Shown here piece by piece: positions 4,579 to 33,845 of a stretch of DNA of 64,000 bases. The notes beneath the pieces were generated by a model, which saw only the letters and a list, made by a program, of their open reading frames with translations, did no database searches and was not told where the DNA came from. The DNA lies in contig CAZNSZ010000002.1 in assembly GCA_964575865.1 (NCBI GenBank), forward strand, positions 390-64,389, in the 5' to 3' direction. Positions within the stretch are counted from its first letter, which is position 1. Each line of letters begins with the position of its first letter. Source of the DNA: an uncultured Bacteroides sp. (GTDB lineage: Bacteria; Bacteroidota; Bacteroidia; Bacteroidales; GCA-2748055). A program made the position numbers and the translations under genes.

Positions 4579-4595
4579 AGGATGGGCGCTCGGTT

Positions 4596-6557: not shown

Positions 6558-6574
6558 TGCAGCTTCATGGGTAT

Positions 6575-7150: not shown

Positions 7151-7154
7151 CTGA

Positions 7155-8285: not shown

Positions 8286-8929
8286 TTGTTGTGACAGGTG
8301 AGACAGAGTTCGCTGTTCACATTGGACATATTCAGAAGATGGGGCACCCCGTACCGGTTGTGCACATCATGGCAGGATGCACACTCCATCCGTCCGTTGA
8401 ACAACAGATCGTTGTCAATGGTGCTGCCCAGGCCGCTGTTGGTTGTGGTGGGAGGAAAGAGCCCCCCGTCACTCACTGCCAGCGCATCGGTATAATCAAA
8501 GGAGATGGGATGATCGGTACTGAGATCGTTCCCGGCCACTCCACCGATGCGGGCAGACGGATCGATGAAATTGGTCCCGCTTGTAATCCCCCCGAAATTC
8601 TCCAGGGCAACGGTACCGTCGTGGCAGCTGAGGCAAAGGCGGGAACTGGCCCCGGGATCCGTAATGGAGGAGCTGCCATCGAAGGTGGGAGAATCGTACA
8701 GGGTGTACCCTGCCACCACCGTGGTCTCATGGTTCCACAGGGGAGCACTCAACAGGTTAATGGCCTGGTGGGTGGTATGACACACCCCGCAACCCCGGTT
8801 GGTGGACGGGGCCCAGGACTCGGTGGAAAAATCATGCGCGGTACCTGCGATCTGGGAAATCCCGGTTTGCCAGGCAGCCAGGCAGAAAAGAGCCAGCAAG
8901 ATCTGCCGGCAACGTGTGAAGGTGTTCAT
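8282..8929 (-). CDS. Tetrahaem c-type cytochrome (MHC4), first gene of operon
   Basis: Has a signal peptide. Motifs are CGVCH, CLSCH, CASCH and CLTCH. The N-terminal half is homologous to the N-terminus of MHC12 (CxxCHTxH ... PLWN ... YTLY ... LCLSCHDGT.AL ... DHPISF.Y). Confidence 0.9.
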   Translation of the reverse strand: MNTFTRCRQILLALFCLAAWQTGISQIAGTAHDFSTESWAPSTNRGCGVCHTTHQAINLLSAPLWNHETTVVAGYTLYDSPTFDGSSSITDPGASSRLCLSCHDGTVALENFGGITSGTNFIDPSARIGGVAGNDLSTDHPISFDYTDALAVSDGGLFPPTTTNSGLGSTIDNDLLFNGRMECASCHDVHNRYGVPHLLNMSNVNSELCLTCHNK

Positions 8930-18848: not shown

Positions 18849-19403
18849 TCAGGCCGTAAGTTTGGCCTCATGGACGATCTCCATTCCCCGCTGGATCGCC
18901 TTCTCGTTGACGGGGATCAGGTGGTGGTGCCTCTCGGGCAGCGATTTCCGCAGTCCTTTGATCACGTTTTCGAAGTCGACCACCGGTTTGACCTTGATAA
19001 AGGCCCCCAGCACCACCATATTAAAGGTGACAGGCGCTTTCATCCGGGCTGCCTCGGCCGCTGCCTCCACCTGGAAAATACGAATATCGTCGCGCTCCGG
19101 GTGGCGGGTGATCCCGTTGGGATCGTAGATCATCAGGCCGCCCGGTTTTACTTTCGGTTCAAATTTGTCCAGCGACTGCTGGTTCAGCAGGATGGCCGTA
19201 TCGTAGCTCTGCAGTACCGGGGAACTGACCCGGTCGTCGCTCAGGATGACAGTCACGTTGGCGGTCCCGCCCCTCATCTCGGGCCCGTAGGAGGGCATCC
19301 AGCTCACCTCCTGTTCCTGCATGATCCCGGAATAGGCCAGGATCTTCCCCATGGAGAGGACCCCCTGTCCCCCGAATCCCGCGATAATGATTTCTTCGGT
19401 CAT
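18849..19403 (-). CDS. 2-oxoacid:ferredoxin oxidoreductase, gamma subunit
   Basis: IIIAGFGGQGVLSMGKILA at the N-terminus is typical of the POR/KOR gamma subunit. It is the last gene of the delta-alpha-beta-gamma string. Confidence 0.9.
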   Translation of the reverse strand: MTEEIIIAGFGGQGVLSMGKILAYSGIMQEQEVSWMPSYGPEMRGGTANVTVILSDDRVSSPVLQSYDTAILLNQQSLDKFEPKVKPGGLMIYDPNGITRHPERDDIRIFQVEAAAEAARMKAPVTFNMVVLGAFIKVKPVVDFENVIKGLRKSLPERHHHLIPVNEKAIQRGMEIVHEAKLTA

Positions 19404-19430
19404 AATATCCTGGTTCTTGTTAATATCTGT

Positions 19431-19493
19431 AGGTTAGAGGTTAGAGGTTAGAGGTTAGATATTTTTCTAACTCCTAACGGCTAACGGCTAACC
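19431..19493. repeat. Heptamer tandem repeat (AGGTTAG x4) plus imperfect inverted copy (CTAAC-nn x4) forming a potential long hairpin in the beta/gamma junction
   Basis: Read directly: aggttag aggttag aggttag aggttag at 19431-19458, then the spacer atatttttc, then taactcctaacggctaacggctaacc. The right arm runs into the last codons and stop of the beta-subunit gene. Confidence 0.7.
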
Positions 19494-20260
19494 AGCTCGC
19501 CTGCTACTTTTATATCCCCCATGGGATAGAAAGGGAACATGTGTTCCTCCATCCAATTGTTGGAATCGTTGGGGCTCATCCGCCAGCCGGAGTTGCAGTT
19601 GGAGACAAATTCAATGAAGGTCATCCCCTTCTTGTCCCGCTGCGCCTCCAGGGCGATGCGGATCGCCTTTTTTGCCTTCCGCACCGGGCCCGGTTTGTGC
19701 ACCGCCTGGCGGGTCACATAGTATACGCCGGGCAACTGCGCGATCATCTCGGTGATCTTGTAGGGCGGGCCCATGGTCTGGCTGTTCCGGCCGTAGGGCG
19801 AGGTGGTCGATTTCATCCCGTCCAGGGTGGTGGGGGCCATCTGCCCGCCGGTCATCCCGTAGATGCCGTTGTTCACGAAAAAGATGGTAAAATTCTCCCC
19901 GCGGTTGCAGGCATGGATCGTTTCGGCGGTCCCTATGGCGGCCAGGTCCCCGTCCCCCTGGTAGGTGAAGACGAATTTCTCGGGCCAGAGGCGCTTGATG
20001 CCGGTGGCCACTGCAGGGGCCCTACCGTGGGCCGCCTGTGAGAAATCCACATCCATGAAATCGTAGGCCAGCACCGAGCAGCCCACCGGGGCGATCCCGA
20101 TGGTCTCTTCCTGGATCCCCATCTCCTCGACCACCTCCATGATCAGCCGGTGGATCGTTCCGTGTCCGCATCCCGGACAGTACGAGAGGGTGGCATCGGT
20201 CATGAGCGGCGTCCGCCGGTAGACCAGGTTCTCCTCCCTGATGATCTCTTTGACTTCCAT
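19481..20260 (-). CDS. 2-oxoacid:ferredoxin oxidoreductase, beta subunit (TPP-binding)
   Basis: Has CPGCGHG near the N-terminus and the GDG...NN TPP motif (YQGDGDLAAIG ... FFVNNGIYGMTGGQ). Confidence 0.92.
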   Translation of the reverse strand: MEVKEIIREENLVYRRTPLMTDATLSYCPGCGHGTIHRLIMEVVEEMGIQEETIGIAPVGCSVLAYDFMDVDFSQAAHGRAPAVATGIKRLWPEKFVFTYQGDGDLAAIGTAETIHACNRGENFTIFFVNNGIYGMTGGQMAPTTLDGMKSTTSPYGRNSQTMGPPYKITEMIAQLPGVYYVTRQAVHKPGPVRKAKKAIRIALEAQRDKKGMTFIEFVSNCNSGWRMSPNDSNNWMEEHMFPFYPMGDIKVAGELVSR

Positions 20261-21328
20261 TTAAAATCCTCCTGTAAATTTTTCTTCAACCGCATCCATC
20301 ACATCTTCCGGGGAAGGGATCCTTCCGCCGGGGGTTCCCCAGTGATAGACCGGGACCCTTCCATTCACAGCCAGCTTTACATCCTCCACCATTTGCCCCG
20401 CACTCAGTTCCACGGCCATCATCCCCTTCACCCTGCGGCCCAGCCGGGCCAGCTCCTCGCTGGGGAACGGGAACAGCGTCTGCGGGCGGAGCAGTCCCAG
20501 CCGCATCCCTTTATTCCGTGCCAGTTCCACAACCTTCTGGCAGATCCTGGCACTGGATCCGTAGGCCACCAGCAGGAATTCCGCATCGTCGCACTGGAAT
20601 TTCTCGAACATGACATCCTGGCTCATGCTCCGGTACTTCTCCTGGAGCTTCAGGTTGTGTTCATATTGCAGGTCGGGATCCAGGTTCAGCGAAGTGATGA
20701 TGTTCCGCTCGCGGTTCTTCTTACCGGTGATCACCCAGGACTGGTCGAATTCGGTGACACGGGGCTTCTGGGGCGGCAGCTCCACCTTCTCCATCATCTG
20801 CCCGATCAGTCCGTCGCTGAGGATCAGGGCAGGATTGCGGTATTTGAACGCCAGGGTGAAGGCCAGGTCCACAAAATCGGCCATCTCCTGGACAGAGGCC
20901 GGGGCCAGCACGATCAGGTGGTAATCACCGTGACCGCCTCCCTTGGTGGACTGGAAATAGTCGGCCTGCGAGGGCTGGATGGTTCCCAGCCCGGGACCGC
21001 CCCTGACCACATTGACGATCAGGCAGGGCAGCTCCGCTCCCGCGATGTAGCTGATCCCCTCCTGCATCAGGCTGATGCCCGGACTGGAGGAGGAGGTCAT
21101 TACCTTTTTTCCTGTCCCTGCTGCACCGTAGATCATGTTGATAGAGGCCACTTCGCTCTCTGCCTGGAGCACCACCATGCCGGTCCGTTCCTCCGGTTTC
21201 TGGAGGGTCAGGTATTCCAGTACCTCCGACTGGGGAGTGATCGGATACCCGAAATAGGCATCCACACCCGCCCGGATGGCCGCTTCGGCAATGGCCTCGT
21301 TTCCCTTCATTAATGCCAGTTCCTTCAT
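20261..21328 (-). CDS. 2-oxoacid:ferredoxin oxidoreductase, alpha subunit
   Basis: Start chosen at internal ATG 21328 (MKELALMKGNEAIAEAAIRAGVDAYFGYPITP), 12 nt after the delta stop. The ORF-track extension to 21526 overlaps the delta gene. Confidence 0.9.
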   Translation of the reverse strand: MKELALMKGNEAIAEAAIRAGVDAYFGYPITPQSEVLEYLTLQKPEERTGMVVLQAESEVASINMIYGAAGTGKKVMTSSSSPGISLMQEGISYIAGAELPCLIVNVVRGGPGLGTIQPSQADYFQSTKGGGHGDYHLIVLAPASVQEMADFVDLAFTLAFKYRNPALILSDGLIGQMMEKVELPPQKPRVTEFDQSWVITGKKNRERNIITSLNLDPDLQYEHNLKLQEKYRSMSQDVMFEKFQCDDAEFLLVAYGSSARICQKVVELARNKGMRLGLLRPQTLFPFPSEELARLGRRVKGMMAVELSAGQMVEDVKLAVNGRVPVYHWGTPGGRIPSPEDVMDAVEEKFTGGF

Positions 21329-21339
21329 CGCTCTCCGAT

Positions 21340-21567
21340 TTATTTGTTTTTGACCCGGTATACCGTGATCACTCCGTCCGGGCAGACGACGGCGCAATTG
21401 GTACAACCTGTACAATATTCCGGATTCTTCATATACGCATAGTGGTATCCCTTCCCGTTCACCTCTTCGGCCATGCCGATGGTATCGGTTGGACAGTTCA
21501 CCATGCAGACCTGGCACCCCTTGCACCGCTCCACATCCACCACGATGGCGCCTTTCGCTTTTGCCAT
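21340..21567 (-). CDS. 2-oxoacid:ferredoxin oxidoreductase, delta subunit (2x[4Fe-4S] ferredoxin)
   Basis: Has two CxxCxxCxxxCP motifs (CKGCQVCMVNCP, CTGCTNCAVVCP) in 75 aa. Confidence 0.9.
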   Translation of the reverse strand: MAKAKGAIVVDVERCKGCQVCMVNCPTDTIGMAEEVNGKGYHYAYMKNPEYCTGCTNCAVVCPDGVITVYRVKNK

Positions 21568-21592
21568 GCTATGCAGTTTTAATGATCAACTC

Positions 21593-21600
21593 CCAAATGT
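21593..21600 (-). promoter_or_regulatory. -7 promoter box TACATTTG (TAnnTTTG) upstream of the oxidoreductase delta gene
   Basis: The reverse complement of caaatgta is an exact match, 25 nt upstream of ATG 21567. Confidence 0.4.
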
Positions 21601-21674
21601 AACAATTCTCAAAAACCCTGCTCCCTGTTCTTGGACAGGTTTGCCGCATCCCCCGTTTTTTGGGATGAAAAATC

Positions 21675-22997
21675 CTATTCCGGGACGGGGTGATTCTCCT
21701 GAAAGCATTTCAACCGCTCTTCAAGCCGGGGGAACTGATCCCTCCTGACCTGTGATACACAGGCCCTTAGACCTTCGATCCGGGTACTTCCCGTAATGCC
21801 GAGTGAGATGGCACTGATGCCGTAGTAGAGCAGCTCCTCCACCAGCTGGGGGCCCTGAAAACCAGGATAGGACAGGGTGAAATAGAAGCCGTCAGCGATG
21901 GGTTCCTCCAGGTCCATGTCATAGACGATCCGGAAGCCGTATTTCTGAAACAGCGCTTTCATGATCCGTGCCTTCTCCCCGTATTCGCGTACCTCGTTGA
22001 TGTAATTGTAGGTGCCGTCGTTCACCGCCTTGAAGATGGCGGCCAGGGCATACTGGGCCGTGTGTGAAGCCCCGGCGGAAAGAGAGTAGAGTGCCCCGTA
22101 CACCATGGCGTGCCCGAACTTGTCGGAGGTATAGTACCGTTTCAGATCGGGGTATTTCCGGTCGAACAGGGCGGGGGCCATGACAAGCATCCCGATCCGC
22201 TGTCCTGCGTAACTGAACGCTTTTGAGCTGGAGATCAGCAACAGGTAGTTATCGGTGTAGCGTGCCACCGTGGGCTGGTAAGGAGGCTTTCCCGGCCGGG
22301 AAAGGTCTTTGCGGAAATCCATTCCGAAATAGGCCAGGTCCTCGATCACGGTCACGTCATACTTTCTGGAGATCTCTCCGATGACCTTCAGCTCCTGTTC
22401 ATTGAGGCAGATCCACGAGGGGTTGTTCGGGTTTGAATAGAGGATCGAGGAGTAATGGCCTTTCTCGATCTCCTCCTCCATCTTGTCCATTAATTTATCT
22501 CCCCTGAAATCGTACAGGTCAAAGGATCCGTATTCGTGTCCCAGCACCAGGCACTGCTGTTTCTGCACCGGAAAGCCGGGATCGAGGAACAGCGTTCCCG
22601 TGCGTGTCCGGTCCGAACGGTTCACCACCATGAAGGCGGCCATTCCCCCCATCATTGATCCCACCGTGGGGACGCAGTGCATGGGATCGACCTCCACATC
22701 GAGGAACAGCCTGATGAATCGGGCTGCTTCCTCCTTCAGTGGTTTGATCCCTTCGATGTTGGGATACTTGGAGGCCACTCCTTTCCTGAGGGCGATCATT
22801 TCCGCCTCGGTCCCCACGAAGGTGGGATCCAGTCCCGGCACCCCCATTTCCATGCGGATAAACTCCTCCCCTGTGATCCCCTCGATATCGTTCACGATTT
22901 TCACCAGTTCGCGGATGGTCGCATTCCCTGCGGGATGGATGCCAAATGCATCGATCACCTCGTTGACGACTTCGGATGGGATGGGGGTGGATTTCAT
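21675..22997 (-). CDS. PLP-dependent aminotransferase, class I/II
   Basis: Has the PLP-lysine context LLISSSKAFSYAGQRIGML and is about 440 aa. Substrate is not assignable by eye. Confidence 0.85.
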   Translation of the reverse strand: MKSTPIPSEVVNEVIDAFGIHPAGNATIRELVKIVNDIEGITGEEFIRMEMGVPGLDPTFVGTEAEMIALRKGVASKYPNIEGIKPLKEEAARFIRLFLDVEVDPMHCVPTVGSMMGGMAAFMVVNRSDRTRTGTLFLDPGFPVQKQQCLVLGHEYGSFDLYDFRGDKLMDKMEEEIEKGHYSSILYSNPNNPSWICLNEQELKVIGEISRKYDVTVIEDLAYFGMDFRKDLSRPGKPPYQPTVARYTDNYLLLISSSKAFSYAGQRIGMLVMAPALFDRKYPDLKRYYTSDKFGHAMVYGALYSLSAGASHTAQYALAAIFKAVNDGTYNYINEVREYGEKARIMKALFQKYGFRIVYDMDLEEPIADGFYFTLSYPGFQGPQLVEELLYYGISAISLGITGSTRIEGLRACVSQVRRDQFPRLEERLKCFQENHPVPE

Positions 22998-23075
22998 CGG
23001 ATCTTTCTGGTTGGTAGGGCGAATTTAGCCAATGAAAAGTGAATGCCGGGTGTCTTATAGCATAAGGGGGATGTG

Positions 23076-25142
23076 TTATAAAACGGGTCTGCCGGTCCGG
23101 ATCCGGGCATCCACCACCCTCAGCAGGTCCCCGCTCCCCATGATGGGATTCAGATCCAGTTCAACGATCTCCGGGGTGTGCAGGAGCACCCCTGACAGCC
23201 TCGCCAGGATTTCCGCATAGGCACTGGTTTCGATCCCGGCCTGGCCCCTCCACCCCTCCAGGATGCGGTACCCTTTCAGGGAGCGGATCATGCCTTCTGC
23301 TTCGGGCACGGAGAGCGGAGCGAGCCCCGTGGCCAGGTCCCTGACCGCCTCCACGTAAACGCCGCCAAGACCGCACATGACCAGGTGGCCGTAACCGGGT
23401 TCAGCCACCGCTCCGGCAAAAAGCTCAAGCCCGCCAGCCATGGGTTGCAGGAGTACCCCGGTTGCTCCGCTGATCCCCATCATCCGGCGGAAGTGGCCCG
23501 TCAGGTCGGCGTCATTGCCGATGCCCAGGGCCACCCCTCCCACATCGGACTTGTGCACCGGGCCCGTTACTTTCATCACCAGGGGATACCCCAGCTCACG
23601 GGCTGCCGGTTCCAGACCGGCCTCCTCACTGACCACCCGCTCTTCCACCCGGGGGATCCCTGCCGCGTCAAGGAATGCCTGGACATCAGCCGGACCAAGG
23701 TATCCCTCCGGACGTCCCTCAATGAGCATTCTGACAGCCTCCAGGTCCACCCCCTCCAGGAAAGGTTCACTGCCCGACGGCGGGGGGGTGTTGCGGATCC
23801 GGGTGAGTGCCTGGCCGAAAACAACCTCGTCCGGGAAATTGATGTGGCCGTGGGACAGGAAGGCTTTGACCTCCTCACTGGCGGTGGTGACCGAAGGAAG
23901 GACCGGGAAGATGGGCTTGGTGGAGCGCTTCATCTTCTCGTGGAGCACCTTATACACATCGAACACAGGGGCCAGCCCGGGGGTCCCGAATATGACCACG
24001 ATACCGTCTATCTCCGGAAAGTACCGCTCACAGAAATCAATACTCAGTCCCACGTGCTCTGCGGTCCCGGTGGCCAGGATATCAATGGGATTGGCGGCCG
24101 AGGATCCGGGAAACAGATGCTCCAGCAACCGGTCCGCTTCCGGCCCGCTGAGCCGGGGAACCTCCATCCCTCCGTTCTCCAGCACATCGGTCAGCATCAC
24201 GGCGGGACCGCCGGCATGGGTGATGATGGCCAGGTTCTTTTCGGGGAGCCGCTCATTGAGCATCACCGAAGCGACGGTGGTCAGCTCTTCCCTGCCGTAA
24301 CACCTGACGATCCCCGCCTTGCGGAACAGGGCATCCACAGCCATATCCGAGCTGGCCATGGCCCCGGTATGGGAGGAGGCGGCCCGGCTTCCCGCCTTGG
24401 TGGTCCCTGCTTTAATGGCTGCGATCCGGCATCCTTTCCTGATCAGGGAAGTGGCATGGGCCAGCAACTTGCCGGGATGTTTGATGGTTTCGAAATAGAG
24501 GATCTTCACCCGGGAGGAGGAGCCCTCCCGGAATGTGTCGTCAAGGTATTGCAGCACATCCTCCACACCCAGCTGTGCGGAATTACCCACGGAGAAGACC
24601 TGGTTGAAGGTGAGCCCCTTCTGAAGTCCCGCCTCCATGATGAACACCGCGGTGGCCCCGCTGCCGGAGATGAAATCGCATCCCCGTGGATCGAGCCGCG
24701 GAATGGGCAGGGTGAAGACACCCTGGTACCCGGGGGTCATGACCCCGATGCAGTTGGGACCGATCAGGGCTGCCCCGTGTTTCCTGCAGATCCCTGCGAT
24801 CTCCTTTTCGATGGCAGCCCCCCCGGCACTCTCCTCCCCGAATCCAGCGGAGACAATGATAAATGCCCTGGTCTGCCGGGTCTCCGCCAGTTCCCTCACC
24901 ATCTCCGCACAGAGCGAGGCGGGAATGGCCAGGATGGCCAGGTCGCAGTCGGGCAGGTCCTTCACTTCGCGGAAGGAGGGAAGGCCCTGGATGGTGTCCT
25001 CTTTCGGGTTCAGTGCATAGAGGTCACCCGCGAAGGTGCCGGTCCGGATGTTGTAAAAAAGTTTTCCCCCGGGCTTGGCCAGGTTGTTGGACGCGCCAAC
25101 CACCACGATGCTTCCCGGGTCGATGAGTTGCCGGTTGACCAT
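23076..25142 (-). CDS. ADP-forming acyl/acetyl-CoA synthetase (fused alpha-beta, CoA-binding + ATP-grasp)
   Basis: Has the N-terminal CoA-binding fold PGSIVVVGASNNLAKPGG, a succinyl-CoA-synthetase-like middle region (GPNCIGV, phosphohistidine loop region SSHTGAMAS) and a C-terminal ATP-grasp (YPLVMKVTGPVHKSDVGGV). Confidence 0.88.
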   Translation of the reverse strand: MVNRQLIDPGSIVVVGASNNLAKPGGKLFYNIRTGTFAGDLYALNPKEDTIQGLPSFREVKDLPDCDLAILAIPASLCAEMVRELAETRQTRAFIIVSAGFGEESAGGAAIEKEIAGICRKHGAALIGPNCIGVMTPGYQGVFTLPIPRLDPRGCDFISGSGATAVFIMEAGLQKGLTFNQVFSVGNSAQLGVEDVLQYLDDTFREGSSSRVKILYFETIKHPGKLLAHATSLIRKGCRIAAIKAGTTKAGSRAASSHTGAMASSDMAVDALFRKAGIVRCYGREELTTVASVMLNERLPEKNLAIITHAGGPAVMLTDVLENGGMEVPRLSGPEADRLLEHLFPGSSAANPIDILATGTAEHVGLSIDFCERYFPEIDGIVVIFGTPGLAPVFDVYKVLHEKMKRSTKPIFPVLPSVTTASEEVKAFLSHGHINFPDEVVFGQALTRIRNTPPPSGSEPFLEGVDLEAVRMLIEGRPEGYLGPADVQAFLDAAGIPRVEERVVSEEAGLEPAARELGYPLVMKVTGPVHKSDVGGVALGIGNDADLTGHFRRMMGISGATGVLLQPMAGGLELFAGAVAEPGYGHLVMCGLGGVYVEAVRDLATGLAPLSVPEAEGMIRSLKGYRILEGWRGQAGIETSAYAEILARLSGVLLHTPEIVELDLNPIMGSGDLLRVVDARIRTGRPVL

Positions 25143-25240
25143 GAGAATCAGGATTGCTGATCCAAAGATAAGAAAGCTGAATGCGGAGATTTCTGAATCG
25201 GGGGTGTCTTAGAACATGGAAGATGATGCTGTTCAGCGGT

Positions 25241-25303
25241 GAGAAAAAAAAGAAGGCAAGTTGCTACTCTCCCTAAAACCCTCAAAAGATTCGCAACTTG
25301 CCT
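25241..25303 (-). terminator. Candidate intrinsic terminator after the hydrogenase/rex/regulator string
   Basis: A perfect 12-bp inverted repeat AAGGCAAGTTGC (25252-25263) / GCAACTTGCCTT (25292-25303). On the minus strand it is followed by CTTTTTTTTCT. The loop is long (28 nt), which lowers confidence. Confidence 0.5.
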
Positions 25304-25400
25304 TGCACCCCAACAATTACTTTCCAATTGTATGACCAAAAATGAGAAATATTGTTGAAATAGAAAAGCGATTTAACAACCGAAACCTGTTTTTTAACAT

Positions 25401-25643
25401 TTATCCCACCAGCACCGATTTCACCTTCACCCCCTCCACTCTTCCCAGTTTTCCCGTAAGGGATCCGATCCTGTCGGTATCCCCCTCCACCACAAGGGAA
25501 ATGACATTGGTGGTCCGTTCCCTGAGGGGGATGCCCTGCCTTCCGAGGATGATGGATGCATGCTCCGAAATGATGGTATTGACCCGGTGTATGTCGCATG
25601 CGGGTGTAACCAGGAGAATGACAGAACCGATCCTGGATTCCAC
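25401..25643 (-). CDS. TM1266-type putative iron-only hydrogenase system regulator (small ACT-like protein)
   Basis: It is 80 aa. The pattern ...LGRQGIPLRE...ISLVVEGDTDRIGSLTGKLGRVEGVKVKSV matches my recollection of the TM1266 family. It has a GTG start overlapping the rex stop by 1 nt. Confidence 0.75.
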   Translation of the reverse strand: MESRIGSVILLVTPACDIHRVNTIISEHASIILGRQGIPLRERTTNVISLVVEGDTDRIGSLTGKLGRVEGVKVKSVLVG

Positions 25644-26263
25644 TATTTCTTTCCCGTTTTTACGAAATAGGCCACCTTCTCAAGGGAGGTGATCATATCA
25701 TATTCATCCAGGTATACCTGGGGTGAGAGGTTCAGGGGAACCGTGGTGAAATTCAGAACACCTCTTATTCCCGCTTCCACCAGCAGCCGGGAAACTTCCT
25801 GTGCCGAATCTGCCGGAACGGTCATGATGGCAATGGAGATCTGCAGCTCTTCCGCCACCTCCTTCAGCCGGCTCAAGGGGTAACACTTCACCCCTGCGAT
25901 CACCCGGTCGATCTTGTTGGTATCCACATCGAATGTGGCAATGATGTTCAGCTTGGACCGCTTTCCTATGAAATAGGTGGTGATGGCCCTTCCCAGGTTT
26001 CCCACACCGACCACCGCCACATTCAGCCCCTTCTCCGAATCGAGGATCTCACCGATCACCTGGATCAGTTCGCGGACATCATACCCTTTGCGCTGCATGC
26101 TGCTGTAGCCGATGAACATAATGTCCCGGCGCACCTGAACGGCGGTATTGTGATGCAGTTCGGCCAGCTCGTGCGAATAGATGTGTGTCTTCCCCTCCTC
26201 CAGACATTGTAAAAGGCTCCTCCGGTATTCACTGAGTCTTTCGACGGTACGTTCTGGTAACAT
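25643..26263 (-). CDS. rex: Redox-sensing transcriptional repressor Rex
   Basis: Has the winged-helix N-terminus (TVERLSEYRRSL) and the Rossmann motif VAVVGVGNLGRA. Start at ATG 26263 (MLPERT) is preferred, but 26290 is possible. Confidence 0.9.
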   Translation of the reverse strand: MLPERTVERLSEYRRSLLQCLEEGKTHIYSHELAELHHNTAVQVRRDIMFIGYSSMQRKGYDVRELIQVIGEILDSEKGLNVAVVGVGNLGRAITTYFIGKRSKLNIIATFDVDTNKIDRVIAGVKCYPLSRLKEVAEELQISIAIMTVPADSAQEVSRLLVEAGIRGVLNFTTVPLNLSPQVYLDEYDMITSLEKVAYFVKTGKK

Positions 26264-26302
26264 GATCAATGGGTCATGGTGATGATACAATAGTACGAAA
26301 TA

Positions 26303-26344: not shown

Positions 26345-28051
26345 TCAGCGCCGCTCCCCGTAGAGCAGACGGTTCATTCCTTCCTGACCCGTCGCATCGG
26401 TCAGCTGCCTCTGGAGTTCCCGGAGCTTCTGGATGGGAAATGGAAAGGAAGAGCGCGGCCCACCGTCCATTTCCTGCAGGCTCCGGTTCCATAAGGCCGC
26501 ATTCCCGCCGGCGGCAGGCACAGGCTGTCCGCCCCCGTTGATGCATCCGTTCGGACAGGCCATGACCTCCAGGTAATCGAGCTGCACCTTTCCCTCTTTC
26601 AGCTCCCCGATCAGCCCGGCTGCGTTGGAAAGCCCGCTGACGGCCCCGGTCCGGTATCCGCCACCATCACTTTCCAGGAGCATTTCCCGGTAGGGCCGCT
26701 GCATTCTGAACCGGTGGAACTTTTTAAGATTCAAATGCTTACCTGTTTTCATCAGGTGCAGCAGCCTCATCACCGCCTCGGACTCCCCTCCCGCAAGGGC
26801 GGACATCCTGCCTGTGGCTCCGGCAGGCAACAACAGTGAAGCTTCAGGGTCAGGGTGCACCGAACCCGGATCAATGCCCAGCATGGCCACCAGCCTGATC
26901 ACCTCCCGGGCGGAGATCACAAGGTCGATGACCGGTTTCCCCTCCCAGGTATTGCGCTCCTCCAGGGCCTCCCTTTTGGCAGCGGTACAGGAGGTGACAA
27001 GGACCGATACCAGTTCCCGCGGGGATCCCCCTGTTCCGGTCATATGGTACTCCCTGATCACCCTTCCCATGACCTGCTGGGGCGAAAGCAGCGGGACCAG
27101 TGCAGCGGTCAGTTCCGGATCGGTCTGCTCCAGGTAGCGGACCCATGCCGGGCAAGAGGCGGAGATCAGGGGCCATTCTCCGTGAAGGGGGCCCCGGGTT
27201 TCAAGGAGCCGCGCCAGTTCCATGATCATGAGGGCAGTACCGGTAGTGGTTTCAAATACCCGGTCAAATCCGCACCGGTAAAGCAGCCCCCGGAAGAAAT
27301 CCGGAAGGGCTTTCCCCGGTTTGATATCCATCATGGACGAAACAGAAGCGGCCGAGGCAGGGGTAAACTGAACCGCCACCTCTTTACCGGGATCATTCAG
27401 GAAATCCAGCAACTGTTCCAGTGCGGATTTCTCTGTGAGGGCCGCCGTCGGACAGGAGACCAGGCACTGCCCGCAGGAGGTGCAGTTTGAAAACTGAACC
27501 GGCTGCCCGAGGGTCGTGCTGATCCTCATTTCGTTCCCCCGGAAGGCAAAATCAAAGGTGGAGGTGTTCATGATCTCCTCACATACCCGGACACAGCGAC
27601 CGCACAGGATGCATTTGGAGGGATCCCTGACCACCGCCGGATCCGATTGGTCCCTGGGCAGATGCCGTTTGGTCCCGGGAAGCTGCCTTCGCCGGATATT
27701 CATCTCCTCCGCAAGTGCCTGCAATTCGCACGTACCGTTCCGGTCACAGTAGAGGCAGTCATCCGGGTGATTGGACAGGAGCAGCTCCACGTTGGTCCTT
27801 CTGGCCTTCATCACCCTGGGCGAGTGGGAGGTGACCGAGATGGGTCCTTCGAGGGAGAACGAGCAGGAGGGGACCAGCCTGTCCAGCCCCTCCACTTCCA
27901 CCACGCAAAGCCTGCAGGCACCCGAGGGAGATAATCCCTCCATGCTGCAGAGGGTCGGCACCCGGAGCCCTGCCCGTCTCAGCACGGTGAGGAGGGTCTC
28001 CCCTTTCTGTGCCCTGTGGCCCGTTCCGTTTACCGTCACTGTGATCTCCAT
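26345..28051 (-). CDS. [FeFe]-hydrogenase large subunit (HydA-like) with non-canonical H-domain motifs
   Basis: The N-terminal 2Fe-2S fold starts MEITVTVNG.... It also has the His-ligated cluster HPDDCLYCDRNGTCE and two 4Fe-4S motifs (CILCGRCVRVC, CTSCGQCLVSCP). The H-cluster motif P3 is intact (EVMACPNGCINGGGQP). P1 reads SASCPAW instead of TSCCPxW, and P2 reads TSCTAAKRE instead of MPCxxKKxE. Confidence 0.85.
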   Translation of the reverse strand: MEITVTVNGTGHRAQKGETLLTVLRRAGLRVPTLCSMEGLSPSGACRLCVVEVEGLDRLVPSCSFSLEGPISVTSHSPRVMKARRTNVELLLSNHPDDCLYCDRNGTCELQALAEEMNIRRRQLPGTKRHLPRDQSDPAVVRDPSKCILCGRCVRVCEEIMNTSTFDFAFRGNEMRISTTLGQPVQFSNCTSCGQCLVSCPTAALTEKSALEQLLDFLNDPGKEVAVQFTPASAASVSSMMDIKPGKALPDFFRGLLYRCGFDRVFETTTGTALMIMELARLLETRGPLHGEWPLISASCPAWVRYLEQTDPELTAALVPLLSPQQVMGRVIREYHMTGTGGSPRELVSVLVTSCTAAKREALEERNTWEGKPVIDLVISAREVIRLVAMLGIDPGSVHPDPEASLLLPAGATGRMSALAGGESEAVMRLLHLMKTGKHLNLKKFHRFRMQRPYREMLLESDGGGYRTGAVSGLSNAAGLIGELKEGKVQLDYLEVMACPNGCINGGGQPVPAAGGNAALWNRSLQEMDGGPRSSFPFPIQKLRELQRQLTDATGQEGMNRLLYGERR

Positions 28052-28067: not shown

Positions 28068-29993
28068 CTATTGATAATATACCGCTGTAAATTTGCAGAC
28101 TTCATAACAGATGCCGCACCCTATGCACTTCTCCTGCACGATGAAATAAGGGTGCCTCGGCGTACCGATGATCGCTTCGGCGGGGCACTTTTTCGCGCAG
28201 ATGGAGCACCCGGTACAGAGGTCCACATCGATGAACCATTTTCTCAGTTCCTTGCACTGATTGGTGGCACAGCGGCGGTCGAACAGGTGCTCTTCGAATT
28301 CCTTCCTGAAGTGGGTAAGGGCACTCACCACAGGATTGGGCGCATTCTGCCCAAGTCCGCACAGGGAGGTATCCCTCATCACCCCGGCCAGTTCTTCCAG
28401 CTGGACCACCGTCCGGAACCGGTCCAGCTCACCGGTTTCCCCGCTGGTGGCAGTTTTGCGGGTCAGGCTGCCCATGATCTCCGCCATCCGGCGTGTTCCC
28501 TCCCGGCAGGGGATGCATTTTCCGCAGCTCTGCATATCCACATACTCCATGAAATACCGCGTGGTATCGACCACACAGCTCCGGTCATCCAGTACCAGGA
28601 TCCCCCCCGAACCCATCACCAGCCCTTTTGATTTCAGGTTCTCATAGGAAATGGGGATATTCATCAGCCGGGGCGGCACCACACATCCCGCCGGTCCCCC
28701 CACATGGATGGCCTTCAGGCTGCGTCCCTTCCTGACGCCTCCTGCCATGTCCTGGATAATGGTCCGGTAGGTGGTCCCCATGGGGACCTCCACCAGGCCG
28801 GTGACCCTGGCCCTGCCTGCGATGCTGAACAGTTTGGTGCCGGTGCAGTGGCTGAGCCCGACAGAACGGAACCATTGGGGACCATTCCTCACAATGGCGG
28901 GCAAATTGGAGAGTGTTTCCACGTTGTTAACCACCGTGGGACGGCCCATGTACCCCGAAGTTGTCGGATAGGGTGGTTTGGTAGAGGGCATGCCCCTCCG
29001 GCCCTCCAGGCTGGCAATCAGGGCAGTCTCCTCCCCGCAGACAAAAGCTCCCGGACCCTTCCGGAGCGAGATCTGGAGGGTATACCCGCTATCCATGATG
29101 TTGTCTCCCAGCCATCCGGCCTCCCTCAGGGTCAGGATGGCCTGGGTAATGCGTTCAACCGCTTCCCTGTATTCGCTGCGGATGTAGATATATGCCCGGT
29201 TGGACCCGATGGCATAGGCGGCAATGGCGATCCCTTCCAGCAGCTGATAGGGATTTCCCTCCATGAGGGTCCGGTCCGTAAAGGCTCCCGGATCGCTCTC
29301 CTCCGCGTTGCATATGAGGTATTTCTGGTCCGAAGGCATGCCATAAGCCTCCTTCCATTTCAGACCTGTGGGGTATCCCCCTCCGCCCCTTCCCCGAAGA
29401 CCGCTCTCCACCACCAGGCCGCATACCTCTTCGAAGGTCCTGTTCCGGATGATCCCCAGGAAGGCCGAATATCCCCCCCCGGCCACATACGCTTCCAGCG
29501 ATCCCGGATCGATGAGGCCGCAGTGCTCCATCACGATCCGTTTCTGAACGGCAAAAAACGGATGTTCGTCCAGAAAAGGGATTCCGGGCCACGGTTCCTG
29601 TTCCTCCTCCCGGATCTGGCCGATGACCTGCTGGCGGGGCACCACATGGTGGAACACATCGTCAAGGAGGGCCTCCACCTTCTGAGCGGTGATCTTTCCA
29701 AAGAGCAGCCGGGTCCTTCCCGGCATCTGGACGGAGACCACCGGTTCCTCCGAATTCAATCCGATGCTTCCGGTCCGGCACAGCTCCGCTTTAACGGACC
29801 GTTCGGAAATATACTGTTCCACAGCCTGCCAGGTATCCAGGGCCCCTGCCACCCTGCCGGGGGTGGAACAATCGACCATGATCAGGGGATGTTGCACGAG
29901 GGTCCGGTTCAATAGAGCCCTTCTCTCCCGGTCGTCCTGTGTAAGTCCGTCTTCCCCGGCCAGGGCCATTTTCACCAGGAATTCCCTATCCAT
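28068..29993 (-). CDS. NuoF-like flavoprotein subunit of hydrogenase (HydB/HndC type)
   Basis: Has the FMN/NAD site GLRGRGGGGYPTGLKW, the NuoF 4Fe-4S motif SCGKCIPCREG ... LCGLGQ, and a C-terminal 2x[4Fe-4S] ferredoxin (CTGCSICAKKCP, CIGCGICYEVC). The N-terminal thioredoxin-like domain lacks the usual Cys set. Confidence 0.9.
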   Translation of the reverse strand: MDREFLVKMALAGEDGLTQDDRERRALLNRTLVQHPLIMVDCSTPGRVAGALDTWQAVEQYISERSVKAELCRTGSIGLNSEEPVVSVQMPGRTRLLFGKITAQKVEALLDDVFHHVVPRQQVIGQIREEEQEPWPGIPFLDEHPFFAVQKRIVMEHCGLIDPGSLEAYVAGGGYSAFLGIIRNRTFEEVCGLVVESGLRGRGGGGYPTGLKWKEAYGMPSDQKYLICNAEESDPGAFTDRTLMEGNPYQLLEGIAIAAYAIGSNRAYIYIRSEYREAVERITQAILTLREAGWLGDNIMDSGYTLQISLRKGPGAFVCGEETALIASLEGRRGMPSTKPPYPTTSGYMGRPTVVNNVETLSNLPAIVRNGPQWFRSVGLSHCTGTKLFSIAGRARVTGLVEVPMGTTYRTIIQDMAGGVRKGRSLKAIHVGGPAGCVVPPRLMNIPISYENLKSKGLVMGSGGILVLDDRSCVVDTTRYFMEYVDMQSCGKCIPCREGTRRMAEIMGSLTRKTATSGETGELDRFRTVVQLEELAGVMRDTSLCGLGQNAPNPVVSALTHFRKEFEEHLFDRRCATNQCKELRKWFIDVDLCTGCSICAKKCPAEAIIGTPRHPYFIVQEKCIGCGICYEVCKFTAVYYQ

Positions 29994-30450
29994 GCTCCCC
30001 CTCCCCGTAAAGACTGATGAGCTCCCGGAGCTCCCGGAGGGTCACCCCCGTGTAATAGGTGCCATTCAGGGAGAGCACGGGTGAGTGCCCGCAGGCACCG
30101 ATACAGGACTGGATCTCCAGGCTGAAGCGTCCGTCACGGGTGGTCTGCCCGTCGCCGATCCCCAGCCACTTGGTGATCTCGTCAAGGAGATCCCCGGATC
30201 CCGAAAGGTGGCAGGAAGTACCGTTGCACACCAGGATATGGATTTTTCCCTTGGGACTGAAAGTGAACTGGTTATAAAAAGTGGCCAGTCCGTACACCTT
30301 GCTGGGGGGGAGGGCGAGGTGCGTGCCGATCCGGTGGACCGCCTCCTCGGGAATGTAGCCGAAGGCATCCTGAACAGCCTGCAGGATGGGTACCAGCGCA
30401 TTTCTCTTCACCCGGGGGTACCGTTCAAGGATTTCCTCCAGCTTGTTCAT
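29986..30450 (-). CDS. NuoE-like [2Fe-2S] subunit of hydrogenase (HydC/HndA type)
   Basis: Has the family motifs LVPILQAVQD, VCNGTSCHLSG and SCIGACGHSPV. Start is placed at ATG 30450; the ORF-track GTG 30459 is also possible. Confidence 0.9.
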   Translation of the reverse strand: MNKLEEILERYPRVKRNALVPILQAVQDAFGYIPEEAVHRIGTHLALPPSKVYGLATFYNQFTFSPKGKIHILVCNGTSCHLSGSGDLLDEITKWLGIGDGQTTRDGRFSLEIQSCIGACGHSPVLSLNGTYYTGVTLRELRELISLYGEGEHG

Positions 30451-30480
30451 GTGATTCACAATTCAGGTAAATATATTGAA

Positions 30481-30539: not shown

Positions 30540-30833
30540 ATGGCAGCCACAAAGAAAGAAATAATGATCTGCATGGGCAGTTCCTGCTTCAGCAGGGGAA
30601 ACAGGGGCAGCCTGCCCATGATCCAGAAATACCTCAGGGAACACGGGCTGGAGGGGGAGGTGATCCTGAAGGGGAACCACTGTTTCAGCAATTGCAGCGA
30701 GGGACCGGTACTGAAAATCGGCGGGAAGATCTACACCCGCGTCACGGGTGAACGGATCCCCGGGATCATGGAGAATGAATTCGGAGCATCAAAACCAGCA
30801 GAGGATGGAACCCCTTCTGACAATCAGCAGTGA
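30540..30833 (+). CDS. Thioredoxin-like [2Fe-2S] ferredoxin domain protein
   Basis: Start at ATG 30540 (MAATKKEIMICMGSSCFSRGN). The Cys pattern is CMGSSC ... CFSNC followed by EGPVL. It is about 97 aa. Confidence 0.8.
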   Translation: MAATKKEIMICMGSSCFSRGNRGSLPMIQKYLREHGLEGEVILKGNHCFSNCSEGPVLKIGGKIYTRVTGERIPGIMENEFGASKPAEDGTPSDNQQ

Positions 30834-32664
30834 GACCTGTGTGGCCTGTTATGCCTGTGTACGCTCCTGTCCGGTAAAGGCCATCCGCGTACAGCAGGAC
30901 AAAAGCCACCCGGAGATCATCCCGGGACGGTGCATCGGGTGCGGAAGCTGCCTGGCAGCCTGCAGTCCCGGTGCCATTCTGATCCGGAACAGCCGTGATG
31001 AACTGAAGCGGTTGCTGCAGGGTGACCTCCCGGTAGCGGCCCTGGTGGATCCCTCCATTGCAGGGGAATTCCCCGACATCACCGATTACCGCAAATTCGT
31101 ACAGATGTTGCGGGCCCTCGGATTCGCATTCGTTCATGAGGTGGCCTACGGGGTCGATCTGGTGGCCCGGGCTTACAGGCAGTTATTCTCAGATTCCAGG
31201 GGCAAGTATTACCTCATGTCCAACGATCCGGTCACGGTATCCTATGTGGAGAAATACAAACCGGGCCTGGTTTCCAACCTGGCACCCATCCTGCCGCCTG
31301 TCGCTGCCACCGCGGCAGCGGTGCGCAGGCGGATGAAGGAGGAGGCGCGGTTCGTTTACATCAGCCCGCTGATCGCCAGCAAGGACGAGATCGCCCGGTT
31401 CGGCGGAGAGAGCCGGGTCGACCTGGCCATCACGTTCGTGGAACTGCGGGAGATGTTCAGGGAGGCGGGGATCAACGAAACAGACCTGGAATACAGCGAT
31501 TTTGATCCACCCCTGGGATACAGGGGATCTTTCTTCCCCCTGGCCGCGGGCATCCTCCAGGCAGCGGGCATCCCGGAGGACCTTACCCGGAGCAGGGTGG
31601 TCACCGTCGAGGGGGAAGGGATCCTGAAAGCCATCGACGAGTTCGGGGAGAACATCAGGTTCATCAAACAGCACTTCAACTTGTTCTACAAGGAGTTCCT
31701 GATGGGAAGGGGGACCAGCATGGGCGGAAGAAGGATCCTTCGCAGGAGCCAGCTGCTCAGCTACGTGAACAAGCGGATGAAAACACTGGAAGTGAGCGCA
31801 TGGGAACAATGGATGGAAGATGATGCCGACCTGGACCTTTCCAGGACCTTCCAACCCGATGACCAGTCCCTTCCTGAACCTGACAGCGAGGTGGTCGCCG
31901 CCATCCTCAGGGAGCTGGAGCTGAAAGTGGGGACCAACCAGGGCTGTGGCGCTTGCGGGTATGCCAGCTGTGACGACTTTGCACGGGCCATTGCACAGGG
32001 GCTGGCCATTCCGGAGATGTGCACCACCTATTCCTCCCGGAACCGGCAGGAGCATATCCAGTCGCTTAAAATCACCAACGAGAAACTGGCACAGGCCCAG
32101 GAAGCACTTAAAAAATCGGAGAAACAGGCCAGGAAGGAGAAGGAAGCCGCCAGGGAAGCCTCGGAGATCGTCCACCGGATGCTTCACAAGCTTCCCTCTA
32201 TGGTGGTGATCTGTGACCAGCAGCTGAAAATCATTCACGCCAATGAGGGATTTATCCAGATGCTGGGCGAAGAGGCAATGGAAATCCACGAAGTGGTGCC
32301 CGGGCTGACCGGGGCCGATCTGAAAACCCTGCTGCCCTATCCGCTCTATACCCTGTTCAACTACGTACTGTCACAGCATGAACCGGTTACGAACCGGGAT
32401 GTGCAGTTCGAGGGCAAACTCCTCAATGTAAGCGTGTTCGTCATCGAGAAGGGAAAGATCGTGGGTGCGGTGATGAGGGATATGTCGGCTCCGGAGGTCC
32501 AGAAAGAGGAGGTGGTCAAACGGCTCACCGAAGTGATCGATAAAAACCTGGGGCTCGTTCAGCAGATCGGTTTCATCCTGGGAGAGGGAGCGGCGGAGAC
32601 CGAAAGGATGCTGAACTCGATCATCAGCTCATACCGGCAGAAAGGGGATACCACGGAGCCATGA
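30805..32664 (+). CDS. HydS-like sensory hydrogenase homologue (2x4Fe-4S + Fe-hydrogenase-like domain + 4-Cys domain + PAS) lacking H-cluster cysteines
   Basis: Has CVACYACVRSCP and CIGCGSCLAACSP, then a hydrogenase-like core (LVDPSIAGEF ... LRALGFAFVHEVAYGVDL). The equivalents of P1, P2 and P3 read MSNDPVTV, ISPLIASKDE and EFLMGRGTSMGG. Then come CGACGYASCDDFARAI, a coiled coil and a PAS-like domain. The start is uncertain (30748-30805). Confidence 0.8.
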   Translation: MEPLLTISSETCVACYACVRSCPVKAIRVQQDKSHPEIIPGRCIGCGSCLAACSPGAILIRNSRDELKRLLQGDLPVAALVDPSIAGEFPDITDYRKFVQMLRALGFAFVHEVAYGVDLVARAYRQLFSDSRGKYYLMSNDPVTVSYVEKYKPGLVSNLAPILPPVAATAAAVRRRMKEEARFVYISPLIASKDEIARFGGESRVDLAITFVELREMFREAGINETDLEYSDFDPPLGYRGSFFPLAAGILQAAGIPEDLTRSRVVTVEGEGILKAIDEFGENIRFIKQHFNLFYKEFLMGRGTSMGGRRILRRSQLLSYVNKRMKTLEVSAWEQWMEDDADLDLSRTFQPDDQSLPEPDSEVVAAILRELELKVGTNQGCGACGYASCDDFARAIAQGLAIPEMCTTYSSRNRQEHIQSLKITNEKLAQAQEALKKSEKQARKEKEAAREASEIVHRMLHKLPSMVVICDQQLKIIHANEGFIQMLGEEAMEIHEVVPGLTGADLKTLLPYPLYTLFNYVLSQHEPVTNRDVQFEGKLLNVSVFVIEKGKIVGAVMRDMSAPEVQKEEVVKRLTEVIDKNLGLVQQIGFILGEGAAETERMLNSIISSYRQKGDTTEP

Positions 32665-33845
32665 GCGATCCGGTCTATATTGAGGTGGCCTGTGAACAGC
32701 GCAACTTCGGCGGAGAACGCATCTGCGGGGACGTATTCATCAGCAGGAAGGTCAAGGAGGAGAACCGGACCATTGTGGTGCTTTCCGACGGCATGGGGCA
32801 CGGGGTCAAGGCCAATGTGCTGGCCACCCTGACAGCCACCCTGGCGGTAAATTTCACCATGGAGCACAAGGCGGTGGACAGGATCGCCGACATGATCATG
32901 AATACCCTCCCGGTCTGCAGTGAGCGGAAGATGAGTTATTCCACCTTTACCATCGTGGATATCGAGCACGAGGGGCCCACCTCCATCCTGGAGTTCGACA
33001 ACCCACGGGCCATCATCATCCGTGACGGAAGATCCCTGGAACCGGGCTGGAAGAAGGTGGTCATCTCCCAGGGGAAGAACAGGGGCAAGGAGATTTTCTC
33101 CTGCACCCTGTTCCCGGAAAAGGAAGACCGGATCATTCTCTGCACGGACGGGGTCACCCAGGCCGGACTGGGAACCGACCGTTTTCCGCTTGGATGGGGC
33201 CGGGAGCCGGTCCAGGAGTTTGCCCTGAAGCTGACCGCAGACACCCCCCACCTCTCTGCAGACAACCTGGCATTGAAACTGGTGAACATGGCCCACGAAT
33301 TTGACCAGTACAATTCCAGGGACGATACCAGCTGTGCCGCCATCTACTTCAGGGAACCCAGGAAACTGCTGGTGGTGACCGGTCCCCCGTATGAGCTGGC
33401 CGATGACCGGCGGCTGGGGGAGACGGTCCGGCAGTTCCAGGGCAGGAAGGTGATCTGCGGGGCCACCACCGCCGACATTATTGCCAGGGAGCTGGGGCTG
33501 GAGATCGAGGACAGCCTGGTCTTCGATGATCCGGAACTCCCTCCCGTCTCCCGCATGGAGGGGATCGACCTGGTTACCGAGGGGATCCTCACCCTGACCA
33601 AGGTCACCCGGATCCTGAAAGCTGCGCCTCCCCCCTCCGCACCCGGGAAAGGACCGGCCGAGCTCATCGTCAGGCTGCTGAGACAGAGCGACCAGATCCA
33701 TTTCCTCATCGGAACCCGGGTGAATGTGGCCCACCAGGATCCCAGCCTTCCGGTCGACCTGGAACTCAGGAGAACCGTGGTGAACCGCATGGCCCGCGAA
33801 CTGGAGGAGCGGTACCTGAAAGAGGTGACCATCCGCTATATCTGA
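32661..33845 (+). CDS. PP2C/SpoIIE-family serine phosphatase with C-terminal extension
   Basis: Has GDVFISRK ... VVLSDGMGHGVKAN ... ILCTDGVTQAG ... DDTSCAAIYF, the PPM metal-binding pattern. There is a 4-nt overlap with the upstream gene. I do not recognise the C-terminal ~170 aa. Confidence 0.85.
   Translation: MSDPVYIEVACEQRNFGGERICGDVFISRKVKEENRTIVVLSDGMGHGVKANVLATLTATLAVNFTMEHKAVDRIADMIMNTLPVCSERKMSYSTFTIVDIEHEGPTSILEFDNPRAIIIRDGRSLEPGWKKVVISQGKNRGKEIFSCTLFPEKEDRIILCTDGVTQAGLGTDRFPLGWGREPVQEFALKLTADTPHLSADNLALKLVNMAHEFDQYNSRDDTSCAAIYFREPRKLLVVTGPPYELADDRRLGETVRQFQGRKVICGATTADIIARELGLEIEDSLVFDDPELPPVSRMEGIDLVTEGILTLTKVTRILKAAPPPSAPGKGPAELIVRLLRQSDQIHFLIGTRVNVAHQDPSLPVDLELRRTVVNRMARELEERYLKEVTIRYI

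Follow-up and report, generated by a model that had tools for sequence, protein, structure and literature searches.

Described sensory hydrogenases and the sensor of this study

The closest described relatives of the protein reported here are the group C (M2f) sensory [FeFe]-hydrogenases, such as TmHydS, R. albus HydS and T. saccharolyticum HfsB, in which two N-terminal [4Fe-4S] motifs precede the hydrogenase-like domain (H-domain), a Cx2Cx4Cx16C motif and a PAS domain. HydS/HfsB proteins are regarded as regulators (PMC5707799; PMC10838669; PMC8924675), and the characterised sensory enzymes keep the ligating cysteines and the residues that stabilise the [2Fe] subsite, and bind a spectroscopically normal H-cluster (PMC10055695). 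Two reports leave unexplained how HydS converts H2 binding into a signal and what role the C-terminal [4Fe-4S] cluster has (PMC8163306; PMC13104023). We describe here a HydS/HfsB-like gene found in a 64,000-nucleotide stretch of DNA, called the window below, from an uncultured Bacteroides sp. (GenBank assembly GCA_964575865.1, contig CAZNSZ010000002.1, positions 390 to 64,389 of the forward strand). Its product, called the sensor, has the group C domain order but contains no cysteine in its H-domain.

The group D (M2e) protein TamHydS shares with the sensor the N-terminal clusters, the H-domain and the C-terminal four-cysteine cluster; it is encoded beside a bifurcating HydABC and has been proposed to be a sensor, but it binds an active H-cluster and lacks a PAS domain (PMC8163306). 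The Cx2Cx4Cx16C motif has been reported for both M2e and M2f sensory enzymes (PMC8163306). The eukaryotic Nar1/NARF/CIAO3 proteins are, like the sensor, H-domain homologues that are not hydrogenases; they differ in keeping cysteines, in binding Fe-S at the H-site, in serving Fe-S protein assembly and in having no PAS or PP2C link, and the retained H-site cysteines typical of Nar1/NARF are absent from the cysteine-free H-domain of the sensor. HylA is a bacterial HydA homologue in the 'hydrogenase-like' HylABC-formate dehydrogenase complex (PMC6085437). It differs from the sensor in that it transfers electrons within a metabolic complex and has a HydA-type architecture, the sensor being a PAS-containing signalling protein. 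Wang et al. are said to have described HylA in 2013 as lacking an H-cluster site. In the literature searched we found no description of a cysteine-less HydS, and absence there is not proof.

An earlier reading of the same DNA, made by a model from the letters alone (the original prediction), had recognised the group C sensory domain order followed by a PP2C phosphatase and had stated that TmHydS retains an H-cluster. The former is borne out by Pfam and by an AlphaFold2 (AF2) model containing the linker helix and the PAS sheet, and the latter agrees with the literature (PMC10055695). The features of the sensor gene are listed below.

30805 to 32664, + strand: HydS/HfsB-like pseudo-hydrogenase gene, 619 aa, intact open reading frame (ORF) with an ATG start; an in-frame GTG lies at 30748
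30820 to 30978, + strand: two [4Fe-4S] ferredoxin motifs, C12/C15/C18/C22 and C43/C46/C49/C53 (Pfam Fer4 families, residues 6-58)
30991 to 31839, + strand: H-domain, residues ~63-345, predicted [FeFe]-hydrogenase fold without cysteine (Fe_hyd_lg_C, E 6e-26)
31216 to 31230, + strand: remnant of motif L1, MSNDP, with C299 replaced by N140 and C300 by D141 (HMMER against 7p5h; multiple sequence alignments, MSAs)
31363 to 31389, + strand: remnant of motif L2, SPLIASKDE, with M353 replaced by S187, C355 by L189 and K358 by S192 (HMMER against 7p5h; MSAs)
31684 to 31719, + strand: remnant of motif L3, FYKEFLMGRGTS, with C499 replaced by K296, C503 by F298, a 1-residue deletion and proline replaced by R302 (orthologue-guided alignment)
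31945 to 32022, + strand: Cx2Cx4Cx16C, C381/C384/C389/C406, predicted [4Fe-4S] site (Pfam PF04060, residues 381-407)
32012 to 32187, + strand: long linker helix, residues ~403-461, called a coiled coil in the original prediction (AF2 helices 403-421 and 427-461, at low predicted local distance difference test score, pLDDT)
32173 to 32487, + strand: PAS domain (PAS_8, E 4e-6, and PAS_9, residues 457-561; AF2 beta-sheet core 466-559)
32491 to 32661, + strand: conserved C-terminal helical tail containing NLGLVQQIGFILGEGAAETERMLNSI (invariant alignment columns; also found by hhalign in cysteine-containing HydS relatives)

Loss of the H-cluster ligands

When the sensor is aligned with HMMER to T. 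maritima HydA (7p5h), MSNDPVTV stands opposite TSCCPAWV and SPLIASKDE opposite MPCTAKKFE, which gives the L1 and L2 mapping of the list; the same replacement of C300 by aspartate and of C355 by leucine had already been proposed in the original prediction. K358 forms a hydrogen bond to a cyanide (CN) ligand in the [2Fe] subsite, and [2Fe] cannot be inserted once this residue is mutated. Of the 139 aligned rows, which comprise 137 relatives, the query and the HydA of the window, 110 have lysine in this column, where the sensor has S192.

Motif L3 was left unaligned both by HMMER against the Protein Data Bank (PDB) and by Pfam, whose Fe_hyd_lg_C match covers residues 77-270 and profile positions 3-211 of 245 only, and its register was therefore set by orthologue-guided MSAs. 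Orthologues that are ~51% identical retain NLFYCEGCIMGPGTS, the counterpart of which in the sensor is NLFYKE-FLMGRGTS, and the best mapping pairs C499 with K296 and C503 with F298, with one residue deleted and the adjacent proline changed to R302. In an alternative register given by hhalign, both cysteines fall within a 7-column deletion, and the exact counterparts of C499 and C503 appear somewhat ambiguous. The original prediction had placed methionine and threonine at these two columns, a register error in the light of the orthologue-guided alignment. The conclusion that the ligands are lost is nevertheless independent of the L3 register, because the sensor has no cysteine between C53 and C381 and hence none in its H-domain. 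The predicted lack of cysteine at the four ligand columns holds in the HMMER alignment for L1 and L2, and in the MSAs and the hhalign alignment, no alignment placing a cysteine there. Judged from its sequence, canonical H-cluster ligation by the sensor is predicted to be impossible, as had been claimed, a claim that the H-domain without any cysteine supports.

The cysteines outside the H-domain have a different fate. All eight cysteines of the N-terminal ferredoxin motifs are at least 98% conserved and the C-terminal four are 100% conserved, so that the remaining 12 Fe-S cysteines, corresponding to three predicted [4Fe-4S] clusters, are conserved at 98-100%. The sensor thus combines H-domain homology, two N-terminal [4Fe-4S] motifs, Cx2Cx4Cx16C, a PAS domain and linkage to PP2C and hydCBA, all of them group C features; as in M2f proteins, C299 and M353 are not conserved in it, and a PP2C gene and a HydABC-type operon are adjacent with Rex nearby. 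It is set apart from the characterised group C proteins by the absence of all four ligating cysteines, by the lack of an equivalent of K358, a residue that stabilises [2Fe], and by the L3 deletion. On these residues, the sensor lacks the defining chemical feature of HydS/HfsB, and to classify it among the hydrogenases or H2 sensors would be wrong. Databases label its homologues '4Fe-4S binding protein', '[Fe-Fe] hydrogenase large subunit C-terminal domain-containing protein', 'histidine kinase' or 'RnfB'. A match to the Fe_hyd_lg_C domain alone is no proof of an H-cluster protein, and counts of 'sensory hydrogenases' in habitats rich in Bacteroidales could include such proteins unless the ligand columns are checked.

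Conservation, selection and predicted fold

A large-database search returned 2611 homologues at E<=1e-10, and the best 120 of these homologue clusters, drawn from NCBI, ENA, JGI and Logan assemblies, are all full length (~619 aa) and 70-98% identical to the sensor. When the query is added to these 120 clusters, N-D, L/I, K-x-F and R are found at the critical columns in 121/121 sequences, 83/121 have no cysteine across residues 60-375, and the altered motifs MSNDP, ISPLIASKdEI and HFNLFYKEFLMGRGTSxGG are each >95% conserved. A second search, among 1.84 billion cluster representatives, gave 4161 matches, from which 137 representatives of at least 400 aa were aligned; these more distant proteins retain all four cysteines in 128/137 cases, and a multi-ligand loss like that of the sensor was seen only in P0121 and in the N-terminally truncated P0166, P0200 ending before motif L3.

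The H-domain of the cysteine-less clade is under purifying selection. Since the synonymous rate (dS) is saturated in most pairs (70-75% identity), reliable ratios of non-synonymous to synonymous rates (dN/dS, Nei-Gojobori) come from three close pairs only: 0.096 for L004/L008 (dS 0.27), 0.149 for L015/L021 (dS 0.09) and 0.20 for the window and L083 (dS 0.05). More distant, partly saturated pairs give 0.06-0.12. Over the whole sensor gene, dN/dS is 0.04-0.12 in the cysteine-less clade versus 0.02-0.09 in the four-cysteine clade; the corresponding values for PP2C are 0.04-0.075 and 0.026-0.115, and the neighbouring genes give 0.03-0.13.

The AF2 model, built on a 56-sequence alignment, has a mean pLDDT of 74, reaching ~90 over residues 60-250 and falling to ~33 in the L3 loop (298-312). 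Every one of the best 50 Foldseek matches in the PDB is an [FeFe]-hydrogenase, with CbA5H best (E 4e-19) and DdH reaching a TM-score of 0.64 after normalisation to target length, and hhalign aligns the sensor to cysteine-containing relatives with probability 100 across 553 columns. The H-domain is thus predicted to retain the [FeFe]-hydrogenase fold.

These results bear on two explanations of the missing ligands. The loss of every catalytic ligand and the deletion in L3 would suit a decaying pseudogene or a recent loss of function; we regard this as refuted, given that the frame is intact, that the length of ~619 aa is kept in 120 clusters and in 18 same-clade species-representative genomes, none of which shows a truncation, and that dN/dS values are 0.04-0.2 with the altered motifs conserved. 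Nothing was found in favour of a sequencing, assembly or frameshift artefact in the window, which is likewise refuted, as the same residues recur in more than 100 independent assemblies (NCBI, ENA, JGI, Logan). The original prediction of a maintained pseudo-enzyme in place of simple decay, for which orthologue conservation and dN/dS had been proposed as checks, fits the substitutions found in 121/121 sequences, the H-domain dN/dS of 0.06-0.20, the predicted fold and the synteny described below.

Two further observations were made on these sequences. The closest relative, L083 (P0001), is 98% identical to the sensor and lies on a contig with a coverage of 2.4x; it has substitutions among its ferredoxin-motif cysteines and dN/dS is ~0.95 over the first 62 residues, most likely assembly noise. 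In the PAS domain, C470 (VVICD; 32212-32214) is 99% conserved in the fully cysteine-less clade, the same column holding I, V or L in four-cysteine and intermediate orthologues.

Orthologous loci and the path of ligand loss

The sensor gene stands between a small thioredoxin-like gene and a phosphatase gene, and diverges from a hydrogenase operon, as listed below.

32661 to 33845, + strand: PP2C (SpoIIE/RsbU/RsbX-type) phosphatase, 394 aa (Pfam SpoIIE; Foldseek 3ke6, 5mqh, 3w40)
30540 to 30833, + strand: small thioredoxin-like [2Fe-2S] protein (Cx4C…Cx3C), overlapping the sensor start (Pfam 2Fe-2S_thioredx)
29986 to 30459, - strand: hydC (NuoE-like), first gene of the divergent operon (Pfam)
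28068 to 29993, - strand: hydB (NuoF-like flavoprotein) (Pfam)
26345 to 28051, - strand: hydA, with the four H-cluster cysteines and L3 kept (Pfam, NCBIfam)
25643 to 26290, - strand: Rex redox-sensing repressor (Pfam, NCBIfam Rex)
25401 to 25643, - strand: TM1266-family putative iron-only-hydrogenase system regulator (TIGR03959, E 6.5e-26, above cut-off)

The TGA of the sensor overlaps the ATG of PP2C as ATGA, in line with the translational coupling to the phosphatase that the original prediction had noted along with the intact frame. When one genome per GTDB species was scanned, 560 species proved to encode a relative, and the best 80 loci, all from metagenome-assembled genomes (MAGs) of Bacteroidales/Bacteroidota, were analysed. 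The order [second HydS-like or Rex][hydA][hydB][hydC] divergent from [thioredoxin-like 2Fe-2S][sensor][PP2C] is kept across these 80 loci where the contig is long enough. PP2C adjoins the sensor in 78/80 loci, that is, in every locus with sufficient downstream sequence; the thioredoxin-like gene is found in most related loci, and lon comes next after PP2C in the closer relatives.

Ligand states, scored in 81 syntenic PP2C-linked orthologues and written in the order C300/C355/C499/C503, were distributed as follows, at least one ligand being lost in 36/81.

CCCC, all four kept: 45 loci
C499 alone changed (N or D): 9 loci
CLKF/CLAY, C300 kept and the other three lost: 6 loci
DLKF, all four lost, the clade of the window: 18 loci
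DL[NT]Y or DVNY, all four lost: 3 loci

In a neighbour-joining (NJ) tree, the lineages that have lost C355, C499 and C503 and carry the deletion form one clade, within which C300 is replaced by aspartate in two separate sub-clades; replacement of C499 by asparagine appears at two separate places in the four-cysteine part. Tentatively, then, the C499 and the C300 replacements (N/D and D, respectively) may each have arisen in at least two lineages, the tree having no bootstrap support and the count of independent C300 events depending on it. The C499-only replacements (N, once D) belong to two separate lineages (L035, L044, L047, L048, L064-L066, L074 and L079), in which the [4Fe-4S]H site may be one with three cysteines or may stand at an early stage of this degeneration. 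The K358 equivalent is absent from all PP2C-linked orthologues, including the four-cysteine ones (GPCIQNKEE, GPCIAAKDE), and, because even these lack it, loss of the [2Fe] site may have preceded that of the [4Fe-4S]H site.

Most loci encode, past hydA, a second HydS-type paralogue that shares with the sensor the locus, the N-terminal clusters, the H-domain and the FeS motif, at 35-40% identity. Its H-domain matches profile positions 2-245 of 245 and its output consists of HisKA and HATPase_c, unlike the PAS domain and PP2C of the sensor. This histidine-kinase-fused paralogue (- strand, for example at ~1-2000 of L001) retains all four cysteines and K358 in 49/49 loci, with an aspartate at the C299 position (SSDCPAIV). 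Since the paralogue keeps the four cysteines throughout, only the PP2C-linked copy has undergone ligand loss, a restriction that fits subfunctionalisation after duplication. No second HydS copy lies within the window, where Rex and the TM1266-family regulator occupy the place of the paralogue.

We suggest that this large conserved clade, which has the signalling chassis minus the H-cluster site, forms together with its partly degraded relatives a ready-made comparison set that could separate H-cluster-dependent from accessory-cluster-dependent signalling.

The adjacent HydA

The HydA of the window reads SASCPAWV and VTSCTAAKRE, corresponding to C299 to S, M353 to T, P354 to S and K358 to A. 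In all 15 loci of the window clade (15/15), none of the four ligating cysteines of HydA is lost and its L3 is canonical (EVMACPxGCxNGGGQP), but C299 is replaced by S, M353 by S or T, P354 by S and K358 by A (in one locus D). HydA at loci with a four-cysteine sensor is mostly canonical (SCCPAWV and MPCxAKKFE). The states of sensor and HydA pair as follows.

Sensor DLKF: adjacent HydA atypical in 15/15
Sensor CLKF (sister clade): adjacent HydA similarly altered in 3/3
Sensor DL[NT]Y: adjacent HydA canonical in 2/2
Sensor CCCC: adjacent HydA with K or R at 358 in 30/31; C299 mostly C (20) or D (7)

This co-variation corresponds essentially to one phylogenetic event and is to be read as a correlation, not as statistics. 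The HydA of the window clade is under purifying selection (dN/dS 0.05-0.13), and its residues make it possible that the hydrogenase of this lineage is itself slow or non-canonical. The co-variation questions whether the neighbouring 'bifurcating hydrogenase' is a normal hydrogenase. A wider reading, to which we give limited credence, is that the whole module has moved off H2 chemistry, HydABC having turned either into a hydrogenase of very low rate or into an NADH/ferredoxin oxidoreductase without hydrogenase activity, and the sensor with PP2C into a pure redox-state regulator; if true, the related loci would preserve intermediate stages in the conversion of a hydrogenase and its sensor to a different system.

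Proposed role and alternative explanations

On balance, and with reserve, we favour the view that the sensor is a HydS-derived pseudo-hydrogenase that signals via the Fe-S clusters it has left, its PAS domain and PP2C, with redox state and not H2 as its input. Because the cysteine-less gene is strongly conserved in more than 100 related genomes, it probably signals still, with direct detection of hydrogen probably lost. By homology and architecture the protein descends from a group C (HydS/HfsB-type) sensory enzyme, and its H-domain would now be a cofactor-free pseudo-enzyme domain: with the H-cluster cysteines, the C299 and K358 residues and one L3 residue gone, H2 could be neither bound nor activated at an H-cluster. 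The H-domain may be retained for structure or docking; the other parts of the signalling apparatus (three predicted [4Fe-4S] sites, linker helix, PAS domain, C-terminal helices and coupled PP2C) are intact. Its input may be electron pressure acting through the remaining Fe-S clusters, for which ferredoxin, HydABC or the upstream thioredoxin-like [2Fe-2S] protein are candidate reductants, and the sensor and PP2C might regulate the divergent hydCBA-rex operon or the fermentation balance, a role of the kind suggested for HydS/HfsB (PMC5707799; PMC10838669; PMC8924675). Direct H2 sensing, where present, would then be left to the histidine-kinase paralogue and NADH sensing to Rex.

Several points weigh against this view. 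The evidence is computational throughout, and we infer the signal and its identity, the partner, the target and PP2C as the output. The remaining Fe-S clusters are predicted from motifs only. All carriers are MAGs or metagenomes, with no cultured carrier among the named matches, and no STAS protein and no Ser/Thr or RsbW-type kinase, the usual partners of RsbU/SpoIIE, was found among the ORFs flanking the locus. Measured against the PAS region, the H-domain is also somewhat more diverged in the cysteine-less clade (mean identity 74% versus 84%) than in the four-cysteine clade (64% versus 70%); this faster divergence may indicate a mild or partial relaxation, clear constraint remaining. Finally, the conserved charged residues D141, K296 and R302 could form a new ligand site instead.

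According to this last idea, the old H-cluster pocket (D141, N140, K296, R302 and F298) would bind another metal or a small molecule, and the H-domain would still be the sensing element. In its favour, the 121 family members hardly vary at the replaced positions, purifying selection on the H-domain is clear, and two acidic or polar and two basic residues appeared together; however, the sister ligand-loss lineages use different residues (N, T or A at 296, Y at 298, P or T at 302, V at 189) and so share no common new binding motif, the charged pairs could equally be salt bridges filling a cavity, and the L3 loop is predicted at very low confidence. We hold a new ligand site to be unlikely on these grounds. 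A rather unlikely explanation as well is that the protein senses nothing and is a pure scaffold or adaptor, tethering PP2C or controlling it allosterically, or docking on HydABC, with Fe-S clusters that are structural. Pseudo-enzymes often serve as scaffolds, and both the translational coupling to the 394-aa PP2C and the strict pairing of the two genes would suit this role, but the conservation of the 12 Fe-S cysteines and the PAS domain at 98-100% goes beyond what a scaffold should need. Aspartate can ligate [4Fe-4S] in some ferredoxins and D141 is invariant, so that an H-cluster or a [4Fe-4S] cluster might still be held by non-cysteine ligands such as Asp141; this is most improbable with one plausible ligand left, Leu, Lys and Phe at 189, 296 and 298, and no bridging cysteine.

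Phosphatase, hydrogenase operon and other genes of the window

The N-terminal half of PP2C matches RsbU/SpoIIE/RsbX phosphatases in Foldseek, and its metal-binding aspartate motifs (DGMGHG and DDTS) are visible in the sequence. Residues ~235-394 (33365-33845) form a highly conserved Rossmann-like C-terminal domain that has no Pfam match and, in Foldseek, only weak UbiX-like matches (probability 0.6).

In the ~80-nucleotide divergent intergenic region, a palindrome, TGTGATTCACA, at 30450-30460 overlaps the start codon of hydC. It could be an operator with Rex or CRP/FNR-like half-sites, but an 11-nucleotide palindrome in 80 nucleotides is not beyond chance. No hydE, hydF or hydG was found by Pfam among the ~30 large ORFs of the window, to which the search was limited.

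Past hydCBA-rex, positions 18849-25643 (- strand) encode the TM1266-family regulator, an ADP-forming acetyl-CoA synthetase, an aminotransferase and the alpha, beta and gamma subunits of a 2-oxoacid:ferredoxin oxidoreductase, and the gene order is identical in L082. These genes look like an amino-acid/2-oxoacid fermentation module that would supply HydABC with reduced ferredoxin.

Sorting domains of the type IX secretion system (T9SS), together with the names given to homologues, assign the window to Bacteroidales/Bacteroidota. At 1012-8929 (- strand), multihaem c-type cytochromes (paired CXXCH, MtrC/MtrF-like domains) are interleaved with NHL/six-bladed beta-propeller proteins, an uncommon cluster among Bacteroidales that points to electron transfer outside the cell or in the periplasm. 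At the other end of the window, a 1036-aa nSTAND1 NTPase fused to WD40 repeats (55996-59106, - strand) lies beside a 1045-aa ORF without a Pfam match (59139-62276).

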